A stretch of DNA of 64,000 nucleotides from positions 32,001-96,000 of IMG/VR virus record IMGVR_UViG_3300042291_000666; one strand, written 5' to 3'. Under the pieces are notes generated by a model. It was given only the letters and a program-made list of their open reading frames with translations, searched no databases and was not told the origin of the DNA. Shown here piece by piece: positions 14,238 to 62,567 of this stretch. A program made the position numbers and the translations under genes. How positions within the stretch are numbered: position 1 is the first letter of the stretch; each line of letters begins with the position of its first letter. The stretch comes from a virus.

Positions 14238-14411
14238 ATGAAAACTGTAAAAAAAATGTCAAAAGGTGGTGCAATGAAAGACGTACCTGCTAGTAAAAAA
14301 GGATTAGCTAAACTTCCTACAGAAGTAAGAAACAAAATGGGATATAAGAAAAATGGTGGTGCTGTTCCTAAAATGAAAATGGGTGGGGCTATGAAAGGTA
14401 AAAAGTGCTAA
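14238..14411 (+). CDS. 57-aa Lys/Met/Gly-rich peptide with three xGG motifs (not in the track)
   Basis: MKTVKKMSKGGAMKDVPASKKGLAKLPTEVRNKMGYKKNGGAVPKMKMGGAMKGKKC; AAAATT-ATG context. Confidence 0.8.
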   Translation: MKTVKKMSKGGAMKDVPASKKGLAKLPTEVRNKMGYKKNGGAVPKMKMGGAMKGKKC

Positions 14412-14413
14412 TC

Positions 14414-14521
14414 ATGAAGAAGACAGACAAAAAAAAGGTAGTTATTCCCAAAGGATATCATAAGATGCCAGATGGTAAGATTATGAAAGATAGTGCCCAC
14501 AAGAAGACTAAAAAGAAGTAA
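14414..14521 (+). CDS. 35-aa basic peptide with HxMPDGxxM motif (not in the track)
   Basis: MKKTDKKKVVIPKGYHKMPDGKIMKDSAHKKTKKK. Confidence 0.7.
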   Translation: MKKTDKKKVVIPKGYHKMPDGKIMKDSAHKKTKKK

Positions 14522-14552
14522 TATCAATTTTCCTATTGAAGGATTATGATTA

Positions 14553-14810: not shown

Positions 14811-14891
14811 AAAATAAGTCCATTAAACTTTTTTTATTTAAACTATTATTATATATTTGTAATATATTGTTTAACTTAAAAAATAACAAAA

Positions 14892-15200
14892 ATGGCAAAT
14901 GCAAAAACCAACAATCCTTTAGATGAAAAGGAACCAATCCTTACTAAAGAAGAATTGAATGCACGTAGAGAAGAAATCAGTGCATTCTACAAAGACAATA
15001 TTCCACATTTAGAAGTACAAGCAGAGTATGAGATGCTTTTGGCTACTATTGAGAAATCAAGAGCTGAAAGATTGCAGGCTCAAATGTATATGGCACAAGC
15101 CTATGCTTCTCAAAAAGAAGGTGGACAAGTACCTGTTGATTCAGAAGAAGCAAAAGCTTTTAAAGAAGCAATGGAAAATGCTGCATCTCAAATTGACTAA
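14892..15200 (+). CDS. Hypothetical coiled-coil protein
   Basis: ORF preceded by TATATTTG at 14852-14859. Confidence 0.8.
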   Translation: MANAKTNNPLDEKEPILTKEELNARREEISAFYKDNIPHLEVQAEYEMLLATIEKSRAERLQAQMYMAQAYASQKEGGQVPVDSEEAKAFKEAMENAASQID

Positions 15201-15203
15201 ACA

Positions 15204-16127
15204 ATGAAGATGCTAAAAAGGGGGGATTCTGGACCAGATGTCCAGACCCTCCAATCCAAACTCTTATTAAAGCAGGATGCACAGTTTGGACCCGCAACAG
15301 AAAAAGCTGTAATCAGATTCCAACTATCTAATAATCTGCCAGTTACAGGAATAGTAGACTCAGATATGTGGACATTGTTATTTAACAAAGTACCTACATT
15401 ACAAGAAGCTATTGATGAAGACTCGGATGTATCTCAACAGTTATTTAAAACTAATTTTGATCAGACAATTCATAAGTATTATTTATCTCCAAAAGAATAT
15501 ATCAAAGGACCAATTAAAAATGAATATATATTCTTACATCACACTGCAGGAAATAACAATCCTTTTGCTTGTGTTGATATGTGGAATAAAGATGACAGAG
15601 GAGCCATTGGAACTGAATTTGTTTTAGGTGGTAAAAACTGCCACAATGGAGATGCTAAATATGATGGTAGAATGGTTCAAGCTTTTCCAACAGGAAATCA
15701 AGGTTGGCATTTAGGTTTAACTAAATCAGGTTGGATGAATAGACACTCTGTAGGTTTAGAAATCTGCTGTATGGGTCAACTTACTAAAGATTATAAAACC
15801 TATGTAGGAACCAAGGCTCATCCAGATGAAGTAACAACTTTAAAGGAAGTATTCAGAGGATTTTTAAATTGGCATTCTTATTCAGAGAAGCAAATTAAAG
15901 AAACTGAAAAGTGGATTAAGTATGTTGCTGAAAGAGACAGTATTGATGTAAGATTAGGATTGAAACAATTAATACAAAAGTACGGTGCAACTAAAGCATT
16001 TGAATATAATGAAGATGCAGCTACTGGAAAAATTAAAGGATTACTAACCCATACCAATGTAAGAAAGGATAAGTTTGATTGTTATCCACATCCTGACTTA
16101 GTTGATATGATAATGAGTTTAAAATAA
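15204..16127 (+). CDS. Endolysin: peptidoglycan-binding domain plus N-acetylmuramoyl-L-alanine amidase (Amidase_2)
   Basis: LKRGDSGPDVQTLQ...FGPATEKAVIRFQ (PG-binding domain); FLHHTAG, WHLG, SVGLEI and THTNVRKDKFDC (amidase). Confidence 0.9.
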   Translation: MKMLKRGDSGPDVQTLQSKLLLKQDAQFGPATEKAVIRFQLSNNLPVTGIVDSDMWTLLFNKVPTLQEAIDEDSDVSQQLFKTNFDQTIHKYYLSPKEYIKGPIKNEYIFLHHTAGNNNPFACVDMWNKDDRGAIGTEFVLGGKNCHNGDAKYDGRMVQAFPTGNQGWHLGLTKSGWMNRHSVGLEICCMGQLTKDYKTYVGTKAHPDEVTTLKEVFRGFLNWHSYSEKQIKETEKWIKYVAERDSIDVRLGLKQLIQKYGATKAFEYNEDAATGKIKGLLTHTNVRKDKFDCYPHPDLVDMIMSLK

Positions 16128-19056: not shown

Positions 19057-19335
19057 ATGATACAACAAGTAATACCAGTAGGAAAAAAGTTATTGATTAA
19101 ACAAAAGAAAGCTGAAGCATTTTTTAAAAACACAAATATTATTATACCTGAAGCTGCCCAAAAAGTGGAAAACAAAGGTACTGTAGTAGCTGTAGGTGAA
19201 GGTGTTACAGAAATTAAAATAGGAGATGTAGTTCAATATAGTGAGCATTGCTTACCAACATCCATGATGCATGATGAAGAAGAACATTTACTGATTCATG
19301 AGGGTGATGTATTTGCAAAATTTAAGTATGTATAG
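19057..19335 (+). CDS. groES: Co-chaperonin GroES (Cpn10)
   Basis: IPVGKKLLI...IIIPEAA...GTVVAVGEG...IKIGDVV...LLIHEGDV. Confidence 0.9.
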   Translation: MIQQVIPVGKKLLIKQKKAEAFFKNTNIIIPEAAQKVENKGTVVAVGEGVTEIKIGDVVQYSEHCLPTSMMHDEEEHLLIHEGDVFAKFKYV

Positions 19336-21514
19336 ATCCATACCTACATATAAAAATGGGTCTTGGACAACCACAGAATTTGAAACTAGACAGGATTTTA
19401 TAGATTATGTTTTAAGTATATTTAATGTCCCTGGTCATTATGAGTTTAATGAACTTTCTTTTAAGTTTAATGAACAAGCTCAGATATTTAATGAACAGGG
19501 ATTTTATTGTAATAAACCATTTAGATCTAAAGATTTTACTGATTACTGGGAAGATCAAAAAAACAAATGTAGAGAAGGAGTTATTTACAGTGATGGAGAC
19601 AAAAGCTGGTACTTAACTAGAGATTATTACATGTGGTTAAACTTTCTTCCAATCTTTGACAAAGAAGAGAAGAAATATGGTTTTGCTAAAGTACGTGATG
19701 CTCAGTATCATATGGCTTTATATGAGCAACTTGCAGAACTACATTACAAGCATTCTGCTATATTAAAGAAACGTCAGATAGCATCTTCATACTTTCACAT
19801 GGGTAAAATTATTAATACCTATTGGTTTGAAGAAGGTAGTATCTGTAAGATTGGTGCATCACTTAAAGATTTTATAAATGATAAAGGATCATGGAAGTTT
19901 TTAGATGAATACAAAACATTCTTAAATGAGCATACTGCTTGGTATAGACCTAGTAATCCAGAAAAGGTTTTATTATGGCAACAACAGATTGAAGTTAAAG
20001 TTGGTAATAGAAAAACAGCAAGAGGTTTAAAATCAAAAATACAAGGGGGTTCATTTGAAAAGAATGCAACTACTGGAGTAGGGGGACCATGTACTATTTT
20101 CTTTCATGAAGAAGCTGGTATTGCTCCAAAGATGTCTGAGACATATGAGTACTTACGTCCTGCAATGTCTTCAGGTATGATTACTACAGGTATGTTTATT
20201 GCTGCCGGATCAGTGGGAGATTTAGAACAATGTAATCCTTTGAAAGAAATGATTACTAATCCAGCAGCAAATGATATCTATGCTGTAGAAACTGATCTTA
20301 TTGATGCAGATGGTACAATAGGTATGGCAGGTTTGTTTATTCCAGAACAATGGTCAATGCCTCCATACATTGATGATTATGGAAACTCATTAGTAAAAGA
20401 AGCTGAAGCAGCAATACATGAGGAAAGAGAAAGATGGAAGAATGAATTAAATGGTGAACAGTTTCAATTAAGGATATCTCAGAAACCTTTAAATATTGCA
20501 GAAGCATTTGCATATAGAAAAGCATCTGTATTTCCACAAGGTATTCTTAGCAGACAACAAAAAAGAATTGAAGAAAAAGAATATCCTTATGAACTCATTG
20601 AACTAGATAGAGATGAGAAAGGTATCTTTGCTAAAAGAACAAACAAACTTCCAATAAGTAGATTCCCTGTAGACAAGAAACAAGTGGATAAGACGGGAAG
20701 TATTGTTGTTTGGGAACGTCCAGTCAAGAGTCCTGAGTTTGGGGCTTATTACGCTTCTATTGACCCCGTATCAGAAGGTAAGACAACTACTTCTGATTCC
20801 TTATGTAGTATCTTTGTTTATAAGAATGCAACAGAGGTTACAAGGACTATGATATCTGGAGATGTAGAACAGTTTTTAGAAAAAGATAAAATTGTTGCAT
20901 CATGGTGTGGTAGATTTGATGATATTAATAAGACGCATGAAAGATTAGAATTAATTATAGAATGGTATAATGCCTGGACTATAGTTGAAAATAACATATC
21001 TTTGTTTATACAACATATGATTTCTAGAAAGAAACAAAGATACTTAGTACCTAAACAACAAATATTATTTCTAAAAGATCTTGGTTCAAACAATACTGTT
21101 TATCAAGAATATGGATGGAAAAATACTGGTACATTATTTAAAAGTCATTTGATATCATATGCAATTGAATTTTTAAGAGAGGTTATAGATGAAGAAACTG
21201 ATGTTGGTGGAATTGTTACAAATCAAACATTAGGTGTTGAAAGAATACCTGATGGAATGCTTATTAAAGAAATGCTTGCATATTATCCGGGACTTAACGT
21301 GGATAGATTGGTAGCATTTGGAGCTTTAGTTGCTTTTGTAAAGATACAGCAATCTAACAGGGGTTTTTCAAAAAGACGTGAATCAGAAGAAAAATCTTTG
21401 GTAAATTCAGAAAATTTGTATAAATTAAAGTATAGTCCGTTTAAAAATATTGGACGTAGTGGAAACAATACTGGAAATACAATTAAAAGATCAGGCTTCA
21501 AAAATTATAAATAA
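19328..21514 (+). CDS. terL: Terminase large subunit (probable start 19328)
   Basis: crAss-type Walker A KKRQIASSY, Walker B FFHEEAG, RNase H-fold ASIDP...DSLCS and DRLVA; lies upstream of the portal. Confidence 0.92.
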   Translation: MYRSIPTYKNGSWTTTEFETRQDFIDYVLSIFNVPGHYEFNELSFKFNEQAQIFNEQGFYCNKPFRSKDFTDYWEDQKNKCREGVIYSDGDKSWYLTRDYYMWLNFLPIFDKEEKKYGFAKVRDAQYHMALYEQLAELHYKHSAILKKRQIASSYFHMGKIINTYWFEEGSICKIGASLKDFINDKGSWKFLDEYKTFLNEHTAWYRPSNPEKVLLWQQQIEVKVGNRKTARGLKSKIQGGSFEKNATTGVGGPCTIFFHEEAGIAPKMSETYEYLRPAMSSGMITTGMFIAAGSVGDLEQCNPLKEMITNPAANDIYAVETDLIDADGTIGMAGLFIPEQWSMPPYIDDYGNSLVKEAEAAIHEERERWKNELNGEQFQLRISQKPLNIAEAFAYRKASVFPQGILSRQQKRIEEKEYPYELIELDRDEKGIFAKRTNKLPISRFPVDKKQVDKTGSIVVWERPVKSPEFGAYYASIDPVSEGKTTTSDSLCSIFVYKNATEVTRTMISGDVEQFLEKDKIVASWCGRFDDINKTHERLELIIEWYNAWTIVENNISLFIQHMISRKKQRYLVPKQQILFLKDLGSNNTVYQEYGWKNTGTLFKSHLISYAIEFLREVIDEETDVGGIVTNQTLGVERIPDGMLIKEMLAYYPGLNVDRLVAFGALVAFVKIQQSNRGFSKRRESEEKSLVNSENLYKLKYSPFKNIGRSGNNTGNTIKRSGFKNYK

Positions 21515-50400: not shown

Positions 50401-53400
50401 CTTAGATCCTACTAAACCGGATGCATTTAAATATTCTAGTTCAGCTATATTTGGTGGTGATATATTTATTACTAGATATACTGAAAAAGTTATAATGCCA
50501 ATATTTGCACAATACTTATTAGGACAACCTGATGAATTTACATATGATTATTCTCAACATGTTAATATACCTTATCCAAGATTTTGGTTAAATTCCCAAA
50601 AGTTTGATATGAGTAAATTAAGTAGAGAGATAGCATCTTTTGGTGCAATCAGTGGTAGTGATTTAGATGCATTGTTACCTAATGATTTATTTTACTTAGA
50701 TAGAGGTGGTGATAGTTGTAATAACTTTATCAATAGTATTGTTAACAATAGTGATCCTAATCCAATGTTTGCTATGAGATTTGCATATATGTATTCTCAT
50801 TCAAATGGTATGTTAGATTTCTTTGTAGAATCTGAAGTTAATCTAGCTAATAGAGATTGGGAAGATAGACAAGATGCTAGAATATATGATGTATACAGTT
50901 ATAATGATATTGATGAATTATTTCATGCTCAGATTGAAAAGAAAGATAATTTTTATAAGTATGATGAATCATTAAGCCCATCTAAATTTGTAACACAGTT
51001 GGGTAGCTTTGGTGAGATTCAACCAAGATACTATGATCCATATACTGCAGAAAATTGTTATGTTAGTTATCCAAAAAGATTAATCTATTCATTGCAAGCA
51101 CAAAAAGAATCTAAGAAAGATTTTTGGAGAGTGTTTTTGCCATTTAATTATCAAGACTTTAAAAACAAAGTAAGTGTAATTAAACCTATTAATAAGAATG
51201 GTGCACTTATATTTTTCCCATATCTATCTCCACAAATGTTTCAGGGAATTGATACTTTAAAAACATCTTTAGATACTAAACTTACTATTGGTGATGGAGG
51301 TTTATTTAGCCAACCATTTCAAAATGTTGTTAATTCAGATTTGTCAAATGAGTATGGTTCATGTGAAAGTTTAAGAAGTGTTATGAATACACCAGTAGGT
51401 TTGTTTTTTATATCTCAAGCTCAAGGTAAGATATTCCACTTTACTGGTCAAAATTTAGATCCAATATCTAATGCAGGAATGAAATGGTGGTTTAATAAAT
51501 ATCTACCATCTCAATTGGTTAAACAATATCCTGGATTAGAAGATTCACCATTATCAGATAATCCTGTAGTAGGTGTAGGTTGTCAAACAATCTATGATCC
51601 TAATGATGATATAGTTTACTTTATGAAGAAAGACTATAGAGTTAAAGCTTCATATATTGCTGATGTTACATATACTGAAAAAAGAGGATTTGCTTTATCA
51701 GGAAATCCTATTACATTGGGAGATCCAATATTCTTTGATGATTGTTCTTGGACTGTAAGTTATGATCCTAAATCTAAAGCTTGGATATCATTCCATGATT
51801 GGCATCCAGAATTTGCATTGCCAAGTATTAACCATTTCTTTACTACTAAGACTATAGCTACTACTATTCCACAATGTCCTCCAGGTTATAATTTTAATTC
51901 TACTAATGGGTTATGTGAAAGATCAATAAATATTAATGAGCCGGCTATTGTTACAGTAGATGAAATCAATTCTGTTGTTAATGGTGGACCAGTTAATTGT
52001 TTAATAGATATTGTTATTGCAATGGATACATCTGGATCAACTAATTCAGGAGGACGCAGACAAGCACAATTAGCATGGTTAAATGCATTTTTAAGTGATT
52101 CTAATATAACTGCACCAATGGCAGCAGGAACAATGCAGATAGGTTTTACATCATGGGGTAGTGGTAATATAAATTATAATATACCTAATCCAGCTGGAGG
52201 TACTTGGTCAATGAGCAATACAGTAACTCCAACGCAAGTTGCTGCTTGGTATAATGCTAATTGGACAGGTGGCGGTACTAATGTTTCTTTAGGTATGACT
52301 TCTGGTCAAACATTGTTAAATAATAAAGCAGCTAGTCAATTAGGTAATAGAAGTGCACAACCATTTTTTAGACAAATAATTATATTAGTTACAGATACAA
52401 CAAGTGATCCTGGAAATATTGGTTGTCCATTTCAAGGTACTGGTGTTTCACCAAGTGCAACTGGTCCAGCAAATCAAAGAGTATATGCATTATTTTGTGG
52501 TGCAACTAGTGCTATACCAACTGGTAATGTATTAGGTAATATATCTTGTACACCGGGCCCTGTAAATGTTGATGGATACCAATTTGGAATTAATGCATCT
52601 GTGCCTGCAACTTTTGCTACTGTAGCAACAGCTATTGCTGGGTCTGTTTGTTCAATTCCATTTGTTTGTACTTGTGCTCCAGGTTATACAAAAGTATTTT
52701 TTAATCCAGCAACTAGTGTTTATACATCACCAACAGGTGTATGTGATAATATTACACCACCTGTATGTAGAAAAGTAACTTGTGCATGTCCAACATCTCC
52801 TCCGGGAAGTGTTACAACTACAACTGGTAATTGTGATGATGTTTATTTAATAGGTAATCCAACCTATGTGAATCCAAATCCTCAGATTTGTAATTTCTTT
52901 AAATATGAATCTACACCAGCTAATTATAAAGTTGGTTCATTCTGGAGACATAATGTTAGATGTGATAGTTTTGCTAATTTCTATGGTACTGATTATCCAT
53001 GGGAAGTAGAATTGGTTTCTAATACTGGACAAATGGTTAATACTGTTAGAAGTATGGAGTATCAATTAGAAAGTTATGTGTACAAAGGAGATATGGGATT
53101 TGCTTGTAATGATGACAGATGGGAAGATTTAAACTTTAACTTTGATCAATCAATCATTTATAATAATGAGCAAGTATCTGGGTTACTACAATTAACTCCT
53201 ACACCATATAACAATCCTATATTGGAGTTAAGTTATCCTATTATCACTACAAATAGCATAAATATATTATGTTCTAAAGTAGAACAAAAATATAGATTCA
53301 ATCAATTTTATGACATTACTAATGATAGAGGTGAATTTACAAATGCTGAACAGGCAATCTGGGATACACAGCCTAATGGATATATTAAAGTTTTAAATAC

Positions 53401-53548
53401 TATAAACTTAAATTATAACAAACCTCCATTACAGCATAAGAAGTTTAGACATTATTATAATAATGTTATTTTAAGAAGAGTTAAATCAGAAAATAGAAAG
53501 ATGTTATTGAGATTGAATAACACTAAATTACTTTTATCAATGAGATAA
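47450..53548 (+). CDS. Muzzle/tail stabilisation protein with inserted VWA domain
   Basis: FIKGMNKD start, RDEQYAF, IRHHKFP, FGGDIFI and WISFHDW motifs; insert DIVIAMDTSGS. Confidence 0.8.
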   Translation: MAQQNENPGTSSVNTNSFIKGMNKDITQAMEPKESWWHARNAMNNSTDGDLGVIGNEPSNLQCGVIPYTIIGAIHRFGDQWVVYSTDDVNSEIGTFDDSQCKYEVIVNDPCLNFNRKYLITGAAKENFDCTWQVYWDDGNNPSRSLNINKVPWIRTISSAPGDPCITYNDTTQLNCEKIRLAPLVDTPCVTLSKSIDGGMLQNGAYQAFIAYIETEQKVTDYIGISNVQTLWSHSGTGGSLNITVSNLDKDYDYYELVLLVRNQGQIYAKRIGSYSTQQQDINIDYIDDTLVAVSLKTIPQRSPAYEKSNAMYVVNDWLIRQGPVSQFDFNYQPIANDIKVNWVSNQIDSSYYHLGGNKLGFLRDEQYAFFIRWIYNTGERSSSYHIPGRAPRPFATPSGTFLETDVIYGNNVLDSAGDPLFKVYNTGTITSSNLTEVQPDGSLIIARGDMAYWESTERYPANRPEIWGDLCGKPIRHHKFPTEEVGGANSPLHISTTAGDLINVLGVEFTNIGRPKYNDGTYITNVVGYEILRGSRGGAKSILAKGLFRNMRKYTIPNAENLIGGSVQGLYPNYPYNDLRPDVYFHDGNANSIHRTEGCDNYSQSMGSFRPLGAAPAIAGDPSGYSKKVFTFSSPDLMFTKPFLNAYETRIYGYLTGNQSGYFKASEDHPQFKLLRNGAAIMAAIVGLGYAVAQVQGDRGSSRSSGTSGNYMANDFYLGFGTGGTTGLGASAAANAVGAGINAGLIATLSSVYENVDNGVALADLWVGGSGMEFANQLFSTAALTVGIAPAGSGGEYIINTNKNTPLSQLPGVFRAIVALFTTASNIAIGGNEIVELIYNLVNKSDFVLKYNSAGFFNAFTKINTGLFRIKNTDSNYLGQSFQSFDNGNYKINNLFRPTTVAVSLSDPIAEPSVVDRSRFTVGGDMNANLTVNVYSGDYLTNPSEKQIRPISAYYGALKFNFDNQYGQLDGIKQVQMRGCVEYLDPTKPDAFKYSSSAIFGGDIFITRYTEKVIMPIFAQYLLGQPDEFTYDYSQHVNIPYPRFWLNSQKFDMSKLSREIASFGAISGSDLDALLPNDLFYLDRGGDSCNNFINSIVNNSDPNPMFAMRFAYMYSHSNGMLDFFVESEVNLANRDWEDRQDARIYDVYSYNDIDELFHAQIEKKDNFYKYDESLSPSKFVTQLGSFGEIQPRYYDPYTAENCYVSYPKRLIYSLQAQKESKKDFWRVFLPFNYQDFKNKVSVIKPINKNGALIFFPYLSPQMFQGIDTLKTSLDTKLTIGDGGLFSQPFQNVVNSDLSNEYGSCESLRSVMNTPVGLFFISQAQGKIFHFTGQNLDPISNAGMKWWFNKYLPSQLVKQYPGLEDSPLSDNPVVGVGCQTIYDPNDDIVYFMKKDYRVKASYIADVTYTEKRGFALSGNPITLGDPIFFDDCSWTVSYDPKSKAWISFHDWHPEFALPSINHFFTTKTIATTIPQCPPGYNFNSTNGLCERSININEPAIVTVDEINSVVNGGPVNCLIDIVIAMDTSGSTNSGGRRQAQLAWLNAFLSDSNITAPMAAGTMQIGFTSWGSGNINYNIPNPAGGTWSMSNTVTPTQVAAWYNANWTGGGTNVSLGMTSGQTLLNNKAASQLGNRSAQPFFRQIIILVTDTTSDPGNIGCPFQGTGVSPSATGPANQRVYALFCGATSAIPTGNVLGNISCTPGPVNVDGYQFGINASVPATFATVATAIAGSVCSIPFVCTCAPGYTKVFFNPATSVYTSPTGVCDNITPPVCRKVTCACPTSPPGSVTTTTGNCDDVYLIGNPTYVNPNPQICNFFKYESTPANYKVGSFWRHNVRCDSFANFYGTDYPWEVELVSNTGQMVNTVRSMEYQLESYVYKGDMGFACNDDRWEDLNFNFDQSIIYNNEQVSGLLQLTPTPYNNPILELSYPIITTNSINILCSKVEQKYRFNQFYDITNDRGEFTNAEQAIWDTQPNGYIKVLNTINLNYNKPPLQHKKFRHYYNNVILRRVKSENRKMLLRLNNTKLLLSMR

Positions 53549-56500
53549 TGGAGAAAAAGATACAACAAAAAGAAAGTAGAGGATTACCAGGTGGCCCAAA
53601 TGAGATGTTTACTTATACTACAGGAGTATTCTCTACAGAAGGATTTAGAATGGATAGCCCAGATGTAAATAATTATCAAAATATTATTCCATCTGGTTCT
53701 ATTACCATGAAAGAAAGAGATGGTAGTCCTTTGAGAAAGGGACCAATCCATGGTATAGATAATCTAGGTAATGAGCAAGTTATGTATCCTGGATATAATT
53801 ATGAATTTCCAGGTACAGAAGTAACAGAAACATTGATGGCTAAAATGGGTGGTGCTCTATTAGATAAAACTATTGAGTGCGGTAATTGCGGTTGGGAATG
53901 GAAAGCTGCTGATGGTGGTTCTGATGTTATGGATTGTCACAAGTGTGGTGGTAAAGGTTTGATAAAAGCTCAACAAGGACAGGAAATAAAACCACCATTA
54001 GGTGGAGGTAAATATTATACTACTGATAATAAAGTAGTTGACTGGGGAACTGCTGAATATGAAGATGCTTATAATAGAGGTGAAGTATTATCTGATAAAG
54101 GTGTACGTTCTGAAGTAACCTTAGATGGTGGAAAACTTGATGATGTAGTTATAAAAAATAATTACAAAAGAGGTTTTTGGGGAAAGTATAGAGATAAAAT
54201 TATAGATGAAAATAAAGATGCAGGATTACTAGGAGCTATTGCTGGTGTACCTATTTCAGCTGTAACAAGTCTTCCACAACTTGCAGCAACATATGGTATT
54301 ACAGGAAAAATGGAAAGACCTTCTGAAGCAATGGATATAAAAAATCCTTATTTAGCTATGGGAGTTGATGCTGTGGCTGATCCTACAAATTTAGTTGGTG
54401 CAGGATTATTATCAAAAACAAGTTTGATTGCTCCAGAAATAAAACAAGGAATAAAAGTTTTAGGAAATTATGGTAATGATGTAATTCAAACATCAAAAGC
54501 AGCTGGAAAAATTAAGTTACCTACATATGCAAATGCTTATAGATGGCAAGCTGATGTAGTACCTGAAAGCTTAGTTAATTGGGGTAAAAGTTTAACACCG
54601 GAACAACAATCACTAACAGGTTCTTGGTATACAGAAAATGTTGAGCAATTACCATTTTATATGAGAACAAGACCTGGATCTGGAAATGTTAATGTTTCAA
54701 GACTAAGTAATACAAAAATAGATCACTTAAGGGAAACAATGTCTGATGCAGCAAAAGGTATGTCTGGTAAAGCAGAAAGTGTGGCTGCATCAAATACCAG
54801 TATGCCGGGTGAATTAATTCTTCCTGAAGCTTCAAGAAGTAATCTTAAAAAATTTAAGTTTGATGTTAACCCTAGTGAATATACCATACCTGATGAAAGT
54901 ATTAAAAATCCACAATACCGTAATGCAGTTATAGATGAAAATACTACTGATATAATTAAACCTATGTTGGAAGCACAATATCAACCTATAATGGGTATAC
55001 CTAGAAAATATTTTCCTTTTGCAGAAGGGGGTGAAACTATTCCTCCAACACAATATGTAGTTAAGAAAGGGGATACACTTGGTAAGATTGCTGCAGCAAA
55101 CAATACTTCTATTGCAAGTATTATGAGAAACAATGAAAACATTGCTGATCCAAATGTAATTAGTGTTAATCAAAAAATTAATCTTGCAACTCAAAGTGCT
55201 GACGCACCTAAAGAAGAAGTATATAGAGATTGGGATACAATAAGAAATAAAAAAGATGAGATAAATAAATTATCTGATGAACAAAAGATCATACGCTATT
55301 ACAATGACAAACCAGAAGAAAAGTATCTTATATTAGATAAGAAGAATGCTGTAATGAAACTCTATACGGGTGGTAATTTTACAAAGTCATATGAGGTTGG
55401 TGTTGGTCAAAATCCTGGTGATGCACAAACTGTTACTAAAGTTAAAGATGGTAAAACAGATTGGACAGGTGGAAACAAATCTACTGGTGCAGGTATTTAT
55501 ACTATATCAAATATTGATCCTGCTAGTAAAGAATATTATGGTTTGCCTGCATTTAATTTAAAAAATGAAAATGGTATTGAAGTAGCAACAACAATACATG
55601 GTACTCCAACATCTAGAAGAAGTAAGTTTAGTAATGGTACTGTTGTAGATAACAGAATGAGTAATGGTTGTATTAATGGTAAGTGTGAAGATCTTAAAGA
55701 TTTATATAATGAATTAGAGATGGATGCAAAAGTTTATATTCTGCCTGAAGACACCGGAAATAATTTTCAAATCATAGATGGTAAACCTGCATTAAAAGTA
55801 TCTGCTCAAAACAGACAAAAATATAATAGTTATGTTGATCAAAAAGGTGTTACACAAAAAGGTCAAGGTGCAAATCAAACAACTAAAACATTAGTATATA
55901 AACCAATTAAAGCATTCATTAATGAAAAAAAATTCAAAGAAGATGTATTTCAATGGAATGACTTTAATGATGAAAAAGAATATACTAATACTACAAAACC
56001 ATTTATTGTTGGTTTAACTACAAATAAAAAAGATGTCATGAAAGCTGCAAAGATTTCATCTGATGTTTATAATGAATTAGCTAAAATGGCTTTTGGTATA
56101 TATGGAACTGAAAGTAATTTTGGAGATGAGCACGTAGCTTTTGGAAATTTATTAAGAGCAGGTAATAAGTTTTTAGATCCTGAATCATCAAGTAGTCCTG
56201 ATGTTAAATCAAAAGCAAGTACTTATGGAGCTGATGAAAATTATAGAAGCGTTGGATATACTCAATTAAGATGGAACTATCTTAATAAAGATGAGAAGGC
56301 TGCATTAAAAGAAGTAGGTATTACATCTAATAAAGATTTTCTTGATCCTAAAAAAGCAGCTATAGGTACAGTTACTGTATTAGGTATTAGATATAATCAA
56401 CAACTTACTGATAAACAAAAACAAGAAGTTTGGAAATACTTACCTTCTAAGTGGAATAACCGTGCTAACTACGGTAGCCGTGTTAAAAGCAATTCATCTT

Positions 56501-57759
56501 ATTTATCATTTAAACAATTAGATAAAAAACAGGAAGGTGGTGAATATATTCTAGAAGCTCAGAAAGGAAAAGAAACTGAAGACACTTCATGGACAGCATA
56601 CTTAAATCCAGCAAACTGGGGTACATCTAGATATGATGATGCAGGTACATTTAAAGAAGCCTTTAGAGCAGCACGTGTTGAAGGTGATTCTGATTTCCTA
56701 TGGAAGGGTGATAGATATTCTACTGAATTAAAAAAGAATACAGCACCAGCTAAACCAAAAGGAATAACTCCAGAAATTTTAATAAGACAAGCATATAGAG
56801 AATCTGCATTTAATCCTAAAGCTGTTTCTCCAGCTGGTTATAAAGGTTTAGGACAAATTGGAGATGATGTAATTAAAGATTACAAAAAAGCAAATAACAT
56901 TGCAGGTAATGTTGATCCTTTTAACATGAAACAAAATTCTGAGGTTCAAAAGTATTCAATGAATGAATTGTATAATTCAAGTTTTATTAATAAACCAGGA
57001 CAATCAGAACAAGTAAGATTAGCAAAAACATTAGCTGCATATAATTGGGGTAGAACTAATGTTAGTAATTTACTAAATGATTTAAAAGAAGATGGTGTTG
57101 ACATTTATAATAGTTTAGACTGGATTAGTAAATTACCAGATGAACCAAAAAAATATATAAATGATATATTATTACAAAAAAACACTACCTTTAACACTGA
57201 TTTTTCTAAGGCATTAGGTAATCAAAAAAATATGCCAATAAAAAGATTATATGGTTTTAGAGATGGTGGTGAATCAAAACCAGGTCCATTAATGATAGCA
57301 TATAATAGATTGCCAGCAGAAAAGAAAATGGGTGGTGCTATAGATTACAAACAAGTTGGTGGTGAAAAGAAATATTCAGAACAAGATGGTAGATTGGTTG
57401 TAACTACAAAAAAAGTTGATACAGCAGATGGGCCAAGATACTATCAAGCTAAATCACCTGATTATAATTTTTCAAGAGAATTAGTAGATACAAGATCAAG
57501 AACAAGGGTTGCTGATTCAATACCAAAAGCCAATTTAGATCCACGTATAATTGAATCTTTAAATAAAAAACAATTTGGTGGTCAATTAAATTCTACTAAT
57601 ATTACTATGTATAAAGATTATATAAAAGGTAATATTGGTAATGAAGAACAAGCAGTAAAAAACTATGATAAATTAAATAGGATTTACTATAATAAAGCAA
57701 AAGAGTTAGGAATGACTGCTGCAAATTACATAATGACGTATGTTGTAGACAATTCTTAA
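53548..57759 (+). CDS. Multidomain internal/ejected virion protein: Zn ribbon, ART-like region, LysM, L,D-transpeptidase, lysozyme-like and SLT domains
   Basis: CGNC...CHKC; YVVKKGDTLGKIA (LysM); IHGT...SNGC (YkuD); RESAFNPKAVSPAG.KGLGQI...LAAYNWG (SLT). Confidence 0.85.
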   Translation: MEKKIQQKESRGLPGGPNEMFTYTTGVFSTEGFRMDSPDVNNYQNIIPSGSITMKERDGSPLRKGPIHGIDNLGNEQVMYPGYNYEFPGTEVTETLMAKMGGALLDKTIECGNCGWEWKAADGGSDVMDCHKCGGKGLIKAQQGQEIKPPLGGGKYYTTDNKVVDWGTAEYEDAYNRGEVLSDKGVRSEVTLDGGKLDDVVIKNNYKRGFWGKYRDKIIDENKDAGLLGAIAGVPISAVTSLPQLAATYGITGKMERPSEAMDIKNPYLAMGVDAVADPTNLVGAGLLSKTSLIAPEIKQGIKVLGNYGNDVIQTSKAAGKIKLPTYANAYRWQADVVPESLVNWGKSLTPEQQSLTGSWYTENVEQLPFYMRTRPGSGNVNVSRLSNTKIDHLRETMSDAAKGMSGKAESVAASNTSMPGELILPEASRSNLKKFKFDVNPSEYTIPDESIKNPQYRNAVIDENTTDIIKPMLEAQYQPIMGIPRKYFPFAEGGETIPPTQYVVKKGDTLGKIAAANNTSIASIMRNNENIADPNVISVNQKINLATQSADAPKEEVYRDWDTIRNKKDEINKLSDEQKIIRYYNDKPEEKYLILDKKNAVMKLYTGGNFTKSYEVGVGQNPGDAQTVTKVKDGKTDWTGGNKSTGAGIYTISNIDPASKEYYGLPAFNLKNENGIEVATTIHGTPTSRRSKFSNGTVVDNRMSNGCINGKCEDLKDLYNELEMDAKVYILPEDTGNNFQIIDGKPALKVSAQNRQKYNSYVDQKGVTQKGQGANQTTKTLVYKPIKAFINEKKFKEDVFQWNDFNDEKEYTNTTKPFIVGLTTNKKDVMKAAKISSDVYNELAKMAFGIYGTESNFGDEHVAFGNLLRAGNKFLDPESSSSPDVKSKASTYGADENYRSVGYTQLRWNYLNKDEKAALKEVGITSNKDFLDPKKAAIGTVTVLGIRYNQQLTDKQKQEVWKYLPSKWNNRANYGSRVKSNSSYLSFKQLDKKQEGGEYILEAQKGKETEDTSWTAYLNPANWGTSRYDDAGTFKEAFRAARVEGDSDFLWKGDRYSTELKKNTAPAKPKGITPEILIRQAYRESAFNPKAVSPAGYKGLGQIGDDVIKDYKKANNIAGNVDPFNMKQNSEVQKYSMNELYNSSFINKPGQSEQVRLAKTLAAYNWGRTNVSNLLNDLKEDGVDIYNSLDWISKLPDEPKKYINDILLQKNTTFNTDFSKALGNQKNMPIKRLYGFRDGGESKPGPLMIAYNRLPAEKKMGGAIDYKQVGGEKKYSEQDGRLVVTTKKVDTADGPRYYQAKSPDYNFSRELVDTRSRTRVADSIPKANLDPRIIESLNKKQFGGQLNSTNITMYKDYIKGNIGNEEQAVKNYDKLNRIYYNKAKELGMTAANYIMTYVVDNS

Positions 57760-57819: not shown

Positions 57820-59988
57820 GTGAAAGTAAACAAAATAAGTTTAAAGCAACAAGGAGGGGAGAATACTGAACAAGTTGAGGCACAGCCACAACAACAATCA
57901 GTAGATCCTGCTATACAACAAATTTCAGATTTTATTTCTCAAGCAATAAGTCAAGGACAAAATCCTGCTGAAGTTGTTATGTCTTTGGTTGAACAACAAG
58001 TTGACCAACAAACTATTGGTCAAGCTTTGATGATGAATGGTTTTGAAGAAAATGATATCATGTCTTTGTTTGAACAAATGAGTCAAGGTCAACAACCAGA
58101 AGAACAAGTTGGTGGTGAACCAATGCCTGCTGATCAATTAGATCAAACCTCACAACAATTAACTGAAGATGAGAGCATGCATTTTGATGATATGTCAGAA
58201 GAAGAAACACAAGAACCAGGGATGTCTATGGGTAAATCAGGTATAGAAATTAAACCTGAGAATGAAGGTAAGTTTACTAGATGGGCTGAAGCACGCGGTA
58301 TGTCCGTACAAGAAGCTGCAAGTAGAGTTATGTCTAATACAGATGAATATCCTCCAGCTGTAGTTAAGATGGCTAACTTTGCTAAAAATGCTGCTGGTTG
58401 GAACAAAGAATATGGTGGTGAAAATTATCAAATGGGTGGTGTTCCTCAAGGTAAAGTAGCATCAGTTGATAATGTTAATGCTAGAAATAAAGATATGAAT
58501 TGGCAAAGAGCCCCTTTATATTTTAACCCAATGGAACTTGAATATAGCAATGACAACTTTAGTTTAGGTAAAGCTGCGGCTGTTGCTTATGGTGGTTATA
58601 AAGAATTTTTAAGTGGTGATGATAAAAATAAAGATGGTATCAAAGATGGATTCTTTAGAGATGGTGCTAAAAAATCTGCAATAAGGGATGCATCTAAAGG
58701 TAATTATTATAATTATGAAATTACTAAAGATGTTAATGATCCAAATACATATAAGGCGGATAATCTTGATTTATTTAATGCTTCAAAAAATAAAGGTAAT
58801 TTAAGAACATCTGAGCAATTTGATAAAGATGTAATGGATTATTCTAGATTTAATTATAATGTAGATACAAATGGTTATGATGGTATTAAAAGCAGCAGAC
58901 CAATAGATGAAAGAATTTATAATTCAGCAGGTAACAAAAATGCTTTAGCTGGTAAGGACTTTAATTATTTTAAAGAGTTTCTTGGAGATAAAGATACTAG
59001 AGAAATGCTATTAGGTACTCAAGATGATCCTGAAGCTGGTCTATTAAGTATAGATCAATATGGTCAAGATTCATCTGTTAGACCAGGTAGTCCTAATCCT
59101 TATGAATATAATACCTATATGGGTATTAATAAACGTGGTGTTAATCAAAATGCAATGATACCTACTGGAAGCAATGGTCAACCTGCTCCTAGTATGTTTA
59201 ATATTCAACCAGCACCAGTATCAATGATGAATGCAATTCCATCTAATACTTCAACAGATACTCCACAAAAATCATTTCAACAATGGTATGCATCTGGAGA
59301 TGCTGTAAGAAATCAAGGTAAAAATCAAGAACAATTAAAATCTGAGTATGACGCTTATCTTAAACAAGGATTTAAATATGGTGGTGACTTAGATAAAGCT
59401 CAATTTGGAATCCCTCAAGGTTTTGATTTTAGTTCTCTTACTAATTTTGATGATCCTTTTGGTATGAATGATCCAAGGTTTGGACAGACTGCTAATTATG
59501 CTGATACAGCGGGTTATAATCAACAACAAACTTTAGCTGCAAATAATCCAGCAACTAATACTACAGCAGGACCAACTGCACCAACAACACCTACATTTGG
59601 GCCACCAAAAGTAGAAAGGACTAATAAACTTGAAGGTGGATTAAATAGATTTATGGATAGCCCTGGTGTACAAGGTTATGCAAAAGTTTCTGACTTTGCT
59701 GTTAAAGCAGCTAATGTTGCTAATGATTGGTTTAGAGATCAAACAGTTAATCAAGCAAGAGAAGATAACTTTAATAAACTTGGTGCTGATTATCAATACG
59801 CTACTGCAGAAGATCCTTTTAATAAAAGAGGAATGTGGGATGTTAATACCGGAACAGCTGGTAGTGAAGGAGATAGAACGGTTGGTTTATACATGAGCAA
59901 ATATGGTGGTGAAAACAATACTGTAAATGTTGATTCAAATTTATTAGCAAAATTAATTGCAGCGGGAGCTGACATTGAAATATTATAA
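57820..59988 (+). CDS. Internal (cargo) virion protein, low-complexity and modular
   Basis: GTG start after the TTTGTATATTA motif; IEIKPENEGKFT...KMANFAKNA module; many xGG motifs. Confidence 0.75.
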   Translation: MKVNKISLKQQGGENTEQVEAQPQQQSVDPAIQQISDFISQAISQGQNPAEVVMSLVEQQVDQQTIGQALMMNGFEENDIMSLFEQMSQGQQPEEQVGGEPMPADQLDQTSQQLTEDESMHFDDMSEEETQEPGMSMGKSGIEIKPENEGKFTRWAEARGMSVQEAASRVMSNTDEYPPAVVKMANFAKNAAGWNKEYGGENYQMGGVPQGKVASVDNVNARNKDMNWQRAPLYFNPMELEYSNDNFSLGKAAAVAYGGYKEFLSGDDKNKDGIKDGFFRDGAKKSAIRDASKGNYYNYEITKDVNDPNTYKADNLDLFNASKNKGNLRTSEQFDKDVMDYSRFNYNVDTNGYDGIKSSRPIDERIYNSAGNKNALAGKDFNYFKEFLGDKDTREMLLGTQDDPEAGLLSIDQYGQDSSVRPGSPNPYEYNTYMGINKRGVNQNAMIPTGSNGQPAPSMFNIQPAPVSMMNAIPSNTSTDTPQKSFQQWYASGDAVRNQGKNQEQLKSEYDAYLKQGFKYGGDLDKAQFGIPQGFDFSSLTNFDDPFGMNDPRFGQTANYADTAGYNQQQTLAANNPATNTTAGPTAPTTPTFGPPKVERTNKLEGGLNRFMDSPGVQGYAKVSDFAVKAANVANDWFRDQTVNQAREDNFNKLGADYQYATAEDPFNKRGMWDVNTGTAGSEGDRTVGLYMSKYGGENNTVNVDSNLLAKLIAAGADIEIL

Positions 59989-59990
59989 CT

Positions 59991-62567
59991 ATGGCAAAAA
60001 TTAAAATAAATAGTTTACCTGCTGGCTTTAAATTAGTTAATGGTAAAATAGAAGAAGATCAAATGATGAAAGAAGGTGGCTATGTAACTGGTGATCAAGC
60101 CGGCTATGGATTAGTTACCCTACCACAGGAGTATTATAATAATGCTAATATGAATACTACCAGAGATGAATCTGTAAGATATAGTTTATCTGGCGTACCT
60201 AGGGACAAAGCAAACATTGAAGCTGAAGGTGGTGAAACTGTGTTAACTGATTTAAACAATGACAATCAATTTGGTCTATATAATATAACTGGACCAAGAC
60301 ACTCTAAAGGTGGTGTGCCAATGTTTTTACCAGAACAATCTTTTATTTATTCTGATACAGATAAAATGAGATTTAATCAAGAAGAATTAGCTGAGTATGG
60401 TATTGAAACTAAATTAAAAATGACTCCTGCTCAAGTATCTAAAAGATATGATCTTAATAAGTACTATGGTACTATGAAAGATCAATTTGCAGATGAGATA
60501 ACAGCGCGTAGTTCTGAACTTATGTTAAAGAAAAACATGATGGGCTTATCTAAATTAGCATTTGGTCAAGAACTTAAAAAGAAATTTGAAGATGGTGTGC
60601 CTTTAGCGGCTCATCCATATTTAGTTTCTATTGGAGAAGATCCAATTGAGTTTACTGCTAAAGTAGAAAACATTACTAAAAAGCAAGCTCAGATGAAAGC
60701 ATTTGCTGCTTTACCTCCTGATCAACAACAACAGTTATTACAATTGCAAGAAATGATGGCTCAAGTTGATGAACAAGAAGGTCAACAAGAAGAACAATCT
60801 TTTGAAGATCCATCAATGCAAGATCCTGGAATGCAAGAACAACAATTGGCTATGGCTGATGAAGATGTTATGGCTATGGGTATGCCTGAAGATGATATGT
60901 CTGAAGATGGTATGGCAAGATATGGTATGGAAATGGGAATGTATCAAGATGGTAAAGAAACACCTGTTAATCCTCTTCCTAAAGATCATCCAAAATATGC
61001 AGAAGCACAAAAATTAATTGATTCTGGTAAATATAAAGTTGTTAAAGGTGATGTTGTAAATGGTACTCAAATGTATAAGTTTGAATTACTTGAACCTGTT
61101 GATCCAAAATTTGAAGCAGAAAGAAAAGCTCAATTAGATAAGCAAATTGTTACTGCTCAAGATCAAAAAGGTACAGGTTCTGTATCTATATATGATGAAA
61201 ATCTTACTCAACAAGGAAAAGCAATCCAAGAAAATAAATTGGGTGCTTATAAATATGGTATATTATCAAATAAAAATAGACCTACATTACAAAATAAAGC
61301 AGGTGATAAAGCGTATGGTTCAGCAGATATTTCAAAACCAGAAGCAAAAGCGGATTTTTATGATAGATGGGGTGATGTTATAGAAAAAATACCTGGGTTT
61401 GATTATGATAAACCTACAATGGTGGATGCTAACGGTAAGGCAATAGCAGATCCACAATGGACTCAGTTTCAAAAATTAGCTGAAGAAACAAGAAGAAAAG
61501 AACATATTGCTGCATTTGGTAATGATAAAGATTATATACCTTATTTTAGAAGTGATACAAAAGCTAAAGATTATAAACCAGGTTCAGCTTTTGATGGTAA
61601 AATAGGATTGCATACATATAACACTCCGCGTTTTAAACTTGCTCCTGTAGAACCCGTTACAACTTTTGGTGTTAAAGTACCAGATCCAGAAAGACCTGAT
61701 ATAGAAATTCCTCCGGTTAAAGAATATAAAAGACCTCCAGCAGAATGGTGGAGACAAGATAAAAATAACCTAAGAACGTTGGGTTTAATTGAAGATAACT
61801 TATATTTGCCATGGGCACCAGATGCTGCCCCAGCTAAAATAGATTATGTATTAGATGATTGGAGAAGTAATGCTAATGCAAATTTAGCAGCTGCAAACAC
61901 TATGGCTGGAGCATTAGGTGCTGCCGGTGGACCACAGGCTGTAGCTAATTCAAATATTCAAGGTACTGCTTTGCAAGGTATTGCTGAAGGAATCAATAGA
62001 GTTAATAGTAATAATGTTGGTATTATGAATCAGGTTGCACCAATGCAAGCGCAATTGAATATGCAGACTGATGCAATTAATCAGGGTAGAAATATTAAGG
62101 TTTATGATGATACTCAAAAAACATTACAAAATGCGGATAACTTTCAGAATTGGAAGATTGCTAAACAAAATGAATTGTTTAATACTGCACTTACTAATAG
62201 AGCTAATACATATAACTTAAATTCAACATATGATTACTTTGGTATTAGTCCAGAAGATGCTGGAGCTATTGAGTTTACAAATAGTAAAGCTTTGAGAAAA
62301 GTTGGAAAAAGCGCAGACCCAATGAAAAACTTTTATGATCAAGTTGCTGACTATCATAAAGAAACCGGTAAGCCAATGCCTGACGCCCTTATCAAAGCAT
62401 TATATCCAGGTCAAACAGCAAGTGCAGATCCTGATATAACTAATGTACAAGCAGAGTGGGCAAAAAAAGGTCTTCCACCACAATATGTACAACCTCAAAT
62501 GGGTAGATCAGGAAAAGAAATAAAAAGAATGGTAGTACCATTTTACACAGGAAAGATGGGAACATAA
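59991..62567 (+). CDS. Internal (cargo/ejection) virion protein
   Basis: ANIEAEGGE...GPRHSKGGV...FIYSD...TPA motif seen in crAss internal proteins; Q/M-rich linkers. Confidence 0.75.
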   Translation: MAKIKINSLPAGFKLVNGKIEEDQMMKEGGYVTGDQAGYGLVTLPQEYYNNANMNTTRDESVRYSLSGVPRDKANIEAEGGETVLTDLNNDNQFGLYNITGPRHSKGGVPMFLPEQSFIYSDTDKMRFNQEELAEYGIETKLKMTPAQVSKRYDLNKYYGTMKDQFADEITARSSELMLKKNMMGLSKLAFGQELKKKFEDGVPLAAHPYLVSIGEDPIEFTAKVENITKKQAQMKAFAALPPDQQQQLLQLQEMMAQVDEQEGQQEEQSFEDPSMQDPGMQEQQLAMADEDVMAMGMPEDDMSEDGMARYGMEMGMYQDGKETPVNPLPKDHPKYAEAQKLIDSGKYKVVKGDVVNGTQMYKFELLEPVDPKFEAERKAQLDKQIVTAQDQKGTGSVSIYDENLTQQGKAIQENKLGAYKYGILSNKNRPTLQNKAGDKAYGSADISKPEAKADFYDRWGDVIEKIPGFDYDKPTMVDANGKAIADPQWTQFQKLAEETRRKEHIAAFGNDKDYIPYFRSDTKAKDYKPGSAFDGKIGLHTYNTPRFKLAPVEPVTTFGVKVPDPERPDIEIPPVKEYKRPPAEWWRQDKNNLRTLGLIEDNLYLPWAPDAAPAKIDYVLDDWRSNANANLAAANTMAGALGAAGGPQAVANSNIQGTALQGIAEGINRVNSNNVGIMNQVAPMQAQLNMQTDAINQGRNIKVYDDTQKTLQNADNFQNWKIAKQNELFNTALTNRANTYNLNSTYDYFGISPEDAGAIEFTNSKALRKVGKSADPMKNFYDQVADYHKETGKPMPDALIKALYPGQTASADPDITNVQAEWAKKGLPPQYVQPQMGRSGKEIKRMVVPFYTGKMGT

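Follow-up and report, generated by a model that had tools for sequence, protein, structure and literature searches.

A conserved Gly-Gly motif at the module joints of crAss-like phage cargo proteins: a possible hinge and docking element

We describe a short Gly-Gly-containing peptide motif in the presumed cargo proteins of a virus, encoded in a 64,000-nucleotide stretch of DNA (the window) that corresponds to bases 32001-96000 of the 118,325-bp IMG/VR record IMGVR_UViG_3300042291_000666. Its consensus reads hydrophobic-[K/Q]-x-G-G-[E/S/A/D]-hydrophobic, besides which a one-glycine variant x-G-x-E occurs, and the motif punctuates large proteins of 1403 and 722 amino acids (aa) encoded 3′ of the muzzle gene, more loosely a third one of 858 aa, and small basic peptides encoded elsewhere. 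It is enriched in these proteins, conserved in hundreds of relatives well beyond this genome, located in predicted linkers at domain edges and coincident with homology breakpoints, and our results support the view that the swappable modules of the cargo proteins have this motif at almost all of their joints. An earlier note on this DNA had taken the motif either for an address tag that docks cargo inside the procapsid or for a protease site that cuts polyproteins, and had suggested that it would also provide interchangeable module junctions. The last suggestion is borne out below; as to function we lean, tentatively, toward an uncleaved docking and hinge element of ejection proteins built like beads on a string.

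All 24 motif strings listed in the earlier note are present in the genes to which it assigned them, judging by the translations and GG contexts. Some of them (KAQQGQE, EAQKGKE, MGKSGIE, MARYGME, MYQDGKE and MGRSGKE) belong to the looser one-G variant, among which MGKSGIE and MGRSGKE are well conserved and MYQDGKE is lost in one relative (L003). For counting we used a strict pattern, [KQ].GG[EAQD], which was chosen post hoc, after inspection of the sequences. In a motif set of five open reading frames (ORFs; 57, 102, 1403, 722 and 858 aa, or 3,142 aa) this pattern occurs 12 times, compared to a mean of 0.88 and a maximum of 6 upon residue shuffling, and 12 matches were reached in 0/2000 shuffles. 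The matches come from the 57-, 102-, 1403- and 722-aa proteins, including QKEGGQ (15111..15128, + strand) in the 102-aa acidic helical ORF (14892-15200); the 858-aa protein has zero. The other 130 ORFs of the genome (34,489 aa) contain 3 matches against a shuffle mean of 3.15. The motif is thus enriched in the cargo set over shuffled sequences, with the background of other proteins at chance. A partial cross-check on the post hoc choice is that the pattern taken from the 1403-aa protein is found four times in the 722-aa protein.

The composition of the sites was drawn from 396 distinct junction-associated GG sites in the family of the 1403-aa protein. K, Y, F and M are over-represented at position -3, while Q (29%) or K (27%) stands at -2, E (38%) at +1 and L or I at +2; many sites belong to a longer composite, GG-[SE]-[LI]-P-K-A-Q-x-G-G. 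The motif glycines are coded by the usual GGT GGT and the flanking codons vary from site to site, which rules out a repeat at the DNA level. A signal in the DNA such as a Shine-Dalgarno-like GGAGG or an internal start is likewise ruled out by the GGT GGT codons, with no consistent start codon after them.

Conservation extends over large distances. Seven related IMG/VR contigs (63-86% identity) retain motif sites, and sites of the same type are present in the post-muzzle proteins gp040 and gp041 of Cellulophaga phage phi4:1 and, more sparsely, in phi14:2 g069. When 93 divergent sequences of the 722-aa family are aligned, the GG columns are among the best kept, with K/Q two residues before and usually E after. 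These columns are more conserved than their surroundings even though they lie in linkers disordered in the AlphaFold2 (AF2) model, which argues for recognition rather than a passive spacer.

All-against-all BLAST of 121 members of the 1403-aa family gave 988 internal homology breakpoints, which were clustered; because the family proteins are related, they are not independent events, and with this reservation 26.3% of them lie ≤5 aa from [KQ]xGG versus 3.8% of random positions (35.3% versus 8.4% for any GG). In the 1403-aa protein itself the breakpoints fall at residues 101, 148, 216, 312, 493, 999, 1072, 1242, 1273 and 1339, and 7/10 coincide with sites listed in the earlier note. The boundaries of high-scoring segment pairs (HSPs) along the 722-aa protein accumulate at 131-150, 191-210, 591-610 and 691-700. 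Five close homologues of the 1403-aa protein (1403, 1167, 1326, 575 and 539 aa) were also compared; their entire variable middle lies between KAQxGxE and the QEGGE/AQKGKE pair, and their insertions and deletions occur at motifs. These results support the suggestion of the earlier note that the motif provides interchangeable module junctions.

The first cargo protein (1403 aa; 53548..57759, +), for which Pfam searches and an AF2 model of residues 1-154 were used, consists of an N-terminal beta domain, a zinc ribbon, a variable cassette region (LysM, YkuD), an SLT domain and a C-terminal domain of 59 aa. The beta domain and the zinc ribbon are joined at AKMGGA (aa 98-103; 53839..53856, +; breakpoint cluster at 101), whose MGG, residues 100-102, forms the sole internal dip of the predicted local distance difference test (pLDDT) score below 50 in the model, and a 100-aa insert in one homologue (L002) ends at this site. 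KAQQGQE (aa 140-146; 53965..53985, +; cluster at 148) joins the ribbon to the variable region, which begins here in 5/5 homologues, with pLDDT <50 from residue 143 on. FAEGGE (aa 491-496; 55018..55035, +; cluster at 493) is the joint before LysM, which starts at 503, and KQEGGE...EAQKGKE (aa 994-1009; 56527..56574, +; cluster at 999) links the variable region to the SLT block by a double joint; in the homologues L002 and L004 the first KAQxGKE is joined directly to this point. Three joints follow SLT, namely FRDGGE, KKMGGA and KQVGGE (aa 1237-1273; 57256..57366, +; clusters at 1242 and 1273). The first two are kept in 5/5 homologues, and KQVGGE sits in a block missing from L002 and L003, which lack the 70 aa between KKMGGAI and NKKQFGGQ. 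The last joint, KQFGGQ (aa 1341-1346; 57568..57585, +; cluster at 1339), precedes the conserved 59-aa C-terminal domain.

Most of the domain layout that the earlier note had read into this protein is corroborated. Both the Cys pattern and the AF2 model confirm a zinc ribbon between AKMGGA and KAQQGQE, and a Pfam match at 1068-1176 places SLT between EAQKGKE and FRDGGE. From the LysM-LDT-lysozyme series placed between FAEGGE and KQEGGE, LysM (503-545) and YkuD (592-731) are matched by Pfam; the lysozyme and an ART-like block said to end at FAEGGE are unconfirmed labels, because residues 735-995 and 147-493, respectively, give no Pfam match even at E<=5. The Pfam and PHROGs scans of this study covered ~55 of the 135 ORFs and were supplemented by five six-frame single-family searches of the genome.

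A query with the N-terminal 146 aa of the first cargo protein collects a family of 258 proteins, and among the matches listed (120 of 258) the lengths range from 781 to 2249 aa and the cassettes include LysM, YkuD, SLT, PG_binding_1, ART-PolyVal (PF18760, in some homologues) and DUF3597. This shows the first cargo protein to be a rapidly shuffling cassette carrier. In tblastn against cultured phages it had zero matches at 1e-5. The N-terminal model gave no clear fold in Foldseek against the PDB (best E=0.41, with zinc-ribbon likeness only), and in a wider structural alignment the best match, at Z 4.2, was a generic small beta sandwich. A catalytic role for the beta domain was dropped because His68 is not invariant in the family. 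The L003 homologue (L003:5960-9937) carries an HExxH motif (SHEFSH) in its variable cassette, and phi14:2 g070 (record 60360-62141), the first post-muzzle protein of that phage, carries two; zincin-like modules therefore appear to be among the exchangeable cassettes.

The second cargo protein (722 aa, GTG start; 57820..59988, +) is a mosaic of at least five modules, which turn up separately in other proteins among 1668 representative matches at E<=1e-3. Its AF2 model, built on a 93-row alignment with a mean pLDDT of 68.7, has confident domains at 25-92, 141-196, 231-435, 482-518, 583-689 and 702-720, separated by stretches with pLDDT<50 at 1-24, 93-140, 197-230, 436-481, 519-582 and 690-701. 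All six GG sites of the earlier note (12, 98, 199, 206, 521 and 696) lie in the latter, a few residues from a domain edge, and the other two GG pairs (258 and 606) sit within folded parts. KQQGGE (aa 9-14; 57844..57861, +) follows an N-terminal leader within the low-confidence residues 1-24 and is well kept (Q10 in 48/57, G12 in 54/59 and G13 in 58/62 sequences). EQVGGE (aa 95-100; 58102..58119, +), just C-terminal of a four-helix domain (25-92), is missing in L003 and aligns poorly across the wide family. MGKSGIE (aa 137-143; 58228..58248, +) marks the start of a 65-aa helical module B, where 33 HSPs start (131-150), and its G141 is kept in 55/61 sequences. The double joint after module B, KEYGGE-NYQMGGV (aa 196-208; 58405..58443, +), coincides with 68 HSP ends (191-210); G199 is kept in 78/79 sequences, and L003 has a 93-aa insert between the GG pairs at 199 and 206. 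FKYGGD...KAQFGI (aa 518-531; 59371..59412, +) precedes a hypervariable linker (pLDDT <50 at 519-582), and SKYGGE (aa 693-698; 59896..59913, +; pLDDT <50 at 690-701) precedes a conserved C-terminal tail of 24 aa, with G696 kept in 79/79 sequences and 12 HSP ends at 691-700. Foldseek of this model against the PDB found no clear fold (best E=1.2).

The third cargo protein (858 aa; 59991..62567, +) carries loose motif sites: MKEGGY (aa 26-31), an invariant EAEGGE (77-82), and MGRSGKE (837-843) before a conserved tail of 15 aa. Sequence searches of the PDB with the 722- and 858-aa proteins returned nothing meaningful.

The smallest carrier of the motif is a 57-aa basic peptide (14238..14411, +), which has a leader with GG at 10-11, a core GLAKLPTEVRNKMGY, and further GG pairs at 40-41 and 49-50. 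Its family comprises 78 homologues of 40-100 aa that share the invariant core G-L-x-K-L-P-T-x-V-R-N-K-M-G. A GG that does not vary comes next (G40 and G41 in all 28 aligned sequences), and K-M-x-G-G-x-x-K units surround the core in differing numbers, with as many as six 8-aa repeats in tandem. Outside the window (genome 8836-8997, +) lies another small basic peptide, 54 aa long; it starts with MKKYQIGG and ends with MKKGGQMKKSKC, like the 57-aa peptide, and contributes one of the 3 background matches to the strict pattern. We considered the C-terminal Cys of the 57-aa peptide as a mimic of a protease cofactor and set the idea aside, the Cys being kept only in close relatives. A predicted complex of the 57-aa peptide with ring protein 1 and a putative ring protein 2 had a score of 0.00, which, without controls, counts neither way. 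Three larger homologues of the 722-aa protein (P0300, P0306 and P0313) end in R-M-G-G-x-T-K-F-x-K-M-C, resembling the 57- and 54-aa peptides in being basic, GG-preceded and Cys-terminal; a terminal disulfide partner is conceivable.

What might such a motif do? We propose that it would be a short linear element at the junctions of those cargo proteins that leave the virion first, in a large crAss-like clade. These proteins would resemble beads on a string, that is, a series of small, independently folding, exchangeable modules (wall-degrading enzymes, helical modules, docking segments), and the GG at each joint would act as a flexible hinge allowing the modules to be stored and threaded singly. 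The motif might at the same time be a peg that becomes ordered on interior virion surfaces such as the portal wing and the tail barrel and thereby sets the register of the modules; the 57-aa peptide and its relatives could then be free-standing multivalent pegs around one conserved helix. In such a scenario the motif would bind a partner in the virion and would stay uncut. A beads-on-a-string state has been proposed in the literature for the ejection proteins of phage N4. The tandem sites, and the tandem 8-aa repeats of the small peptides, suit multivalent binding better than cutting.

A structural pointer in this direction comes from cargo protein 1 (gp45, 842 aa) of crAss001, whose gene, like that of the 1403-aa protein, directly follows the muzzle gene. 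It has ~10 hydrophobic-x-x-GG sites, and residues 112-211 of the 722-aa protein align to its residues 346-440 (E=3e-7), a stretch that takes in the site preceding the helical module as well as the double GG that follows. Only this one module matches gp45. Both proteins thus have a 65-aa helical module flanked by GG pairs, and in the alignment KEYGGE-NYQMGGV pairs with NAFGG...TQGG of gp45. The gp45 pieces reported as ordered in cryo-electron microscopy (cryo-EM) are a tail-barrel segment, residues 214-245, and a portal-wing segment, residues 425-552 (Bayfield 2023, PMC10172136), and both segments are bounded by hydrophobic-x-x-GG sites, as are modules in the window proteins. Because the second reported range is 425-552, GG427-428, 434-435 and 447-448 by our numbering lie inside ordered density, and a joint that is disordered in the isolated model of the 722-aa protein would therefore be ordered in the virion, reportedly within one segment. 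Partial structures of gp45 are available as PDB 7QOG, 7QOI, 7QOJ, 7QOL and 8CKB. The basic C-terminus of gp45 with its KGG repeats further resembles the 57-aa peptide. There are differences as well: position -2 in gp45 is mostly Ala, not Lys/Gln; gp45 is a single protein of 842 aa, the modules here being distributed among three; and, unlike the 1403-aa protein, it is without wall-degrading enzyme cassettes. By eye, the 1403-aa beta domain and the 858-aa N-terminus seemed possible homologues of M23/IIA-type barrels or of the gp45 domain that binds the portal. This found no support: hmmsearch with a profile built on the 1403-aa N-terminus had no match in gp45, and the best BLAST E value of the 858-aa protein against gp45 is 1.3.

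Because the homologous crAss001 joint is ordered, tandem copies make poor cut sites and no C5, C48, C39, S77 or S78 protease is detectable, we lean to the uncleaved reading. The docking tag of the earlier note is compatible with the crAss001 structure; as a tag for cargo in general it does not hold, because the giant RNA-polymerase-type cargo proteins that follow (1088, 4502 and 1930 aa) are without the motif. The 4502- and 1930-aa proteins have no strict matches, and the 1088-aa protein, whose start is in the window (62627..64000, +) and which is cut by the window end, has one chance-level match, TIKVGGQN. The 4502-aa protein is a single ORF after the 1088-aa protein (genome 97933-111438) and presumably represents a virion RNA polymerase fused to other cargo.

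Encapsulin cargo-loading peptides offer one comparison for a docking function: they are short, lie beside flexible Gly-rich linkers and dock cargo inside an HK97-fold shell. They are also terminal, usually single, and bind the shell protein, unlike the motif described here, which is internal and repeated and for which the sole structural hint points to the portal and the tail barrel. Polyvalent proteins, which are delivered with the DNA and contain peptidoglycan-targeting and ART-PolyVal domains (Iyer 2017, PMC5512222), are similar in carrying many unrelated effector domains per polypeptide, such as LysM, YkuD and SLT in the 1403-aa protein. They differ in that this paper describes no junction motif in its main text, where ‘linker’ and ‘glycine’ occur 0 times, and in that the 1403-aa protein of the window has no detectable ART.

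A number of points weigh against an uncleaved motif. Polyproteins, too, classically have a motif at each joint between their several enzymes. GG occurs within the first 31 residues, behind a short leader, in 5/5 motif ORFs (57, 54, 1403, 722 and 858 aa) versus 6/130 others, and in the three large cargo proteins the motif comes directly before a conserved C-terminal tail; such a combination of leader plus GG at the N-terminus and motif plus tail at the C-terminus is what one classically sees where propeptides are removed by cleavage. Across the two large families the first GG is at residues 10-14 in 166/270 proteins and the last GG is 20-29 or 55-64 aa before the C-terminus in 183/270 (55-64 aa in 91/270). 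Order at the gp45 GG pairs is taken from the reported residue ranges. Two of the four ends of the ordered gp45 segments are within 4 aa of a GG, 425-552 beginning 2 aa before GG427-428 and 214-245 beginning 4 aa after GG209-210, a closeness that is statistically weak and only suggestive because gp45 has 21 GG positions.

The foremost rival, unlikely in our view but far from negligible, is therefore maturation cleavage at or beside GG, which would free the modules and remove the leaders and the C-terminal anchor tails. The 1403- and 722-aa polyproteins would yield separate effectors, the small peptides would be multi-site substrates, and the cutter could be a zincin of the co-packaged 4502-aa protein, a DUF2201 metallopeptidase or some phage enzyme that escapes recognition; after ejection, a host enzyme could also do it. 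Apart from the leaders and tails above, a conserved motif at domain borders in disordered linkers fits this proposal, as does the existence of modules as stand-alone ORFs too; such single-module ORFs usually keep leader and motif (2/11 inspected are without them). Twelve intact gp45 chains spanning the portal tunnel, which the intact-chain model calls for, would fit tightly. The 4502-aa cargo protein contains HEAFH at residue 2053, by pattern only, Pfam finding nothing in this protein. In the literature, the Drobysheva preprint calls fused RNA polymerase-block polyproteins ‘likely cleaved’ and reports a zincin-like domain in phi14:2 gp65, and Iyer 2017 (PMC5512222) proposes zincin processing of polyvalent proteins.

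On the other side, when the complete genome was searched in six frames, nothing at E<=1 matched Peptidase_C5 (PF00770), C48 (PF02902) or C39 (PF03412), or the S77 (PF03420) and S78 (PF04586) prohead proteases, and neither Pfam nor PHROGs detected a protease among the head-module genes. The genome may nevertheless encode a protease that is divergent or belongs to another family. The gp45 GG pairs homologous to those of the 722-aa protein fall in the reported ordered range, and the giant cargo proteins, which would be most in need of cutting, are without the motif. Pro follows GG at some sites, as in the invariant LPGGPNE, and cutting of the tandem 8-aa repeats would produce octapeptides only. 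Gels of crAss001 reportedly show bands to >300 kDa with only ‘moderate’ size discrepancies (PMC6235969), and the N4 virion RNA polymerase is described as packaged unprocessed (PMC5512222). The body text of Bayfield 2023 (PMC10172136) is silent on the motif and contains ‘cleav’, ‘proteoly’ and ‘protease’ 0 times, and none of the papers searched describes the motif. Nothing relevant on proteolysis of crassvirus cargo turned up in the literature searches either. The polyprotein protease site of the earlier note is thus a possibility that the five unmatched protease families, the lack of a head protease and the ordered GG pairs of gp45 leave unsupported.

A few further observations concern possible processing. 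A gene in the replication block (genome 24996-26153, - strand) encodes a DUF2201_N putative metallopeptidase with a VWA-like domain and HELLH, a possible processing enzyme that would count on the side of cleavage, and the 1088-aa protein has a weak Peptidase_M91 match (E=0.065, under the family cut-off). In phi14:2 gp66, GG 218-219 (EGLQGGDL, residues 214-221) lies in a cleft-blocking domain, with flanks that are only loosely motif-like; according to the Drobysheva preprint, activation requires either refolding or cleavage of this domain, whose G218 is in contact with the catalytic Asp.

Known head-maturation systems provide partial parallels. In T4 and the giant phages an S77 or assemblin-like protease cuts after Glu, at L/I-x-E in T4 and at S/A/G-x-E in phiKZ-like phages. 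The window resembles T4 and giant-phage (phiKZ, 201phi2-1, SPN3US gp245) prohead processing in having a short motif that recurs in internal or ejected head proteins, and the propeptides are reported to be N-terminal, with several sites each, and to help target proteins into the prohead (PMC10052503). Unlike T4 and phiKZ, there is no S77/S78 match here, the core of the motif is GG, and Glu follows in ~38% of the 396 junction sites. The adenovirus protease, S273R of African swine fever virus (ASFV) and C39 cleave after Gly-Gly in core or polyprotein precursors or in GG-ending leaders; such GG-X systems have basic core peptides with several sites, and the adenoviral rule places M/I/L at P4. The repeated x-x-G-G-x sites at module borders in the window are like these in position only. 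They differ in that the genome has no C5, C48 or C39 match, in their flanks, with a hydrophobic residue at -3 and K/Q at -2, and in the terminal Cys of the 57-aa peptide, which is not conserved in its family. It is rather unlikely, we think, that a GG-directed maturation of this type operates without a recognisable protease family, with polyproteins being cut at the motif into wall-degrading and host-directed effectors that act separately, leaders and C-terminal tails lost after anchoring during loading, and the peptides acting as co-substrates, timers or DNA-bound cofactors. If true, it would give bacterial viruses a counterpart to the core maturation of adenovirus and ASFV, and the view of crAss001 gp45 as an intact chain would need revision. 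Other roles of the motif, such as recognition in the host after ejection, also seem unlikely.

An improbable alternative is that GG is a passive spacer at a recombination joint, where exchange occurs at a short shared coding sequence without any recognition of the protein. Breakpoints do coincide with the motif, and nearly identical stretches of 12-15 bases (AAA/CAA ... GGT GGT GAA) recur each time in this AT-rich genome and could provide microhomology. However, the flanks are conserved as residues, not as codons (-2 K/Q in 56%, -3 aromatic/Met/Lys, +1 E in 38%), the GG columns are near invariant across representatives at 26-75% identity while neighbouring linkers vary, and N-terminal leaders and C-terminal tails, which need no exchange, are still accompanied by the motif. 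This residue-level conservation, as judged from the alignments, makes a passive joint a disfavoured explanation. That the motif is an artefact of chance or composition in glycine-, lysine- and glutamine-rich proteins is almost certainly wrong and already refuted by the enrichment, breakpoint and conservation results: the pattern was set after inspection and several listed strings fit only its loose version, but no shuffle reaches the observed count, the background is at expectation, and the sites are kept in hundreds of homologues.

Irrespective of the mechanism, the motif bears on the question of how cargo protein amounting to several megadaltons is loaded, arranged and ejected by crassviruses, for which Bayfield 2023 (PMC10172136) resolved only fragments of one cargo protein. 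A conserved and easily recognised joint provides a rule for parsing giant unannotated cargo proteins into modules, defined sites for mutation or for inspection of virion mass spectra, and a testable link from sequence to the cargo segments ordered in cryo-EM.

Turning to the genome context, the window belongs to a crAss-like phage whose complete genome measures 118 kb; the record has direct terminal repeats and a completeness rating of 100%, and the G+C content is ~31%. The muzzle protein (2032 aa; 47450-53548, +; Pfam crAss_MUZ, E=7e-28), after which the cargo block starts, contains zero [KQ]xGG[EAQD] sites in a pattern scan. It is preceded by genes for ring protein 1 (46490-47431; CrAss_Ring_1, E=1.1e-8), a crAss-type major capsid protein (25760-27376; Crass_capsid, E=6.2e-30), a portal with a weak match (21536-24283; P22_portal, E=1.2e-4, under the family cut-off) and the large terminase (19298-21514; PHROGs). 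Muzzle, ring, crAss-type capsid and portal genes thus lie in the order of a Crassvirales-like virion module, the portal match being weak. By capsid protein the closest cultured phages are distant (Leptolyngbya phage Lbo-JY46, 28.5% identity; Cellulophaga phage phi4:1, 25.6%). The ORFs 3′ of the muzzle gene encode the 1403-, 722- and 858-aa proteins in the window and those of 1088, 4502 and 1930 aa further on, a slot that corresponds to the position of the crAss001 cargo/ejection proteins gp45-gp50 as reported (PMC10172136). Together with the detection by mass spectrometry of the products of orthologous positions in phi14:2, phi4:1 and crAss001, this position after the muzzle gene suggests that the post-muzzle proteins are delivered by the virion.

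Between the portal and capsid genes, a 433-aa ORF (24413-25714) without a Pfam or PHROG match has an acidic, disordered-looking N-terminal third and a helical remainder, and looks, from these features, like a scaffold rather than a protease. A 1154-aa glycine-rich protein (35582-39046) carries a C-terminal Peptidase_S74 intramolecular-chaperone domain (E=2e-9), which is typical of self-cleaving tail fibres or spikes. An endolysin candidate (15204-16127; PG_binding_1 and Amidase_2) has just upstream of it a set of small, highly charged ORFs, namely a 78-aa basic one (phrog_14910), that of the 57-aa basic peptide, an 85-aa acidic one and the 102-aa acidic one. Finally, the coding strand switches at window ~11000-12800, genes running leftward to ~12.6 kb and rightward from ~12.8 kb, and the GC skew changes its sign in the same region.

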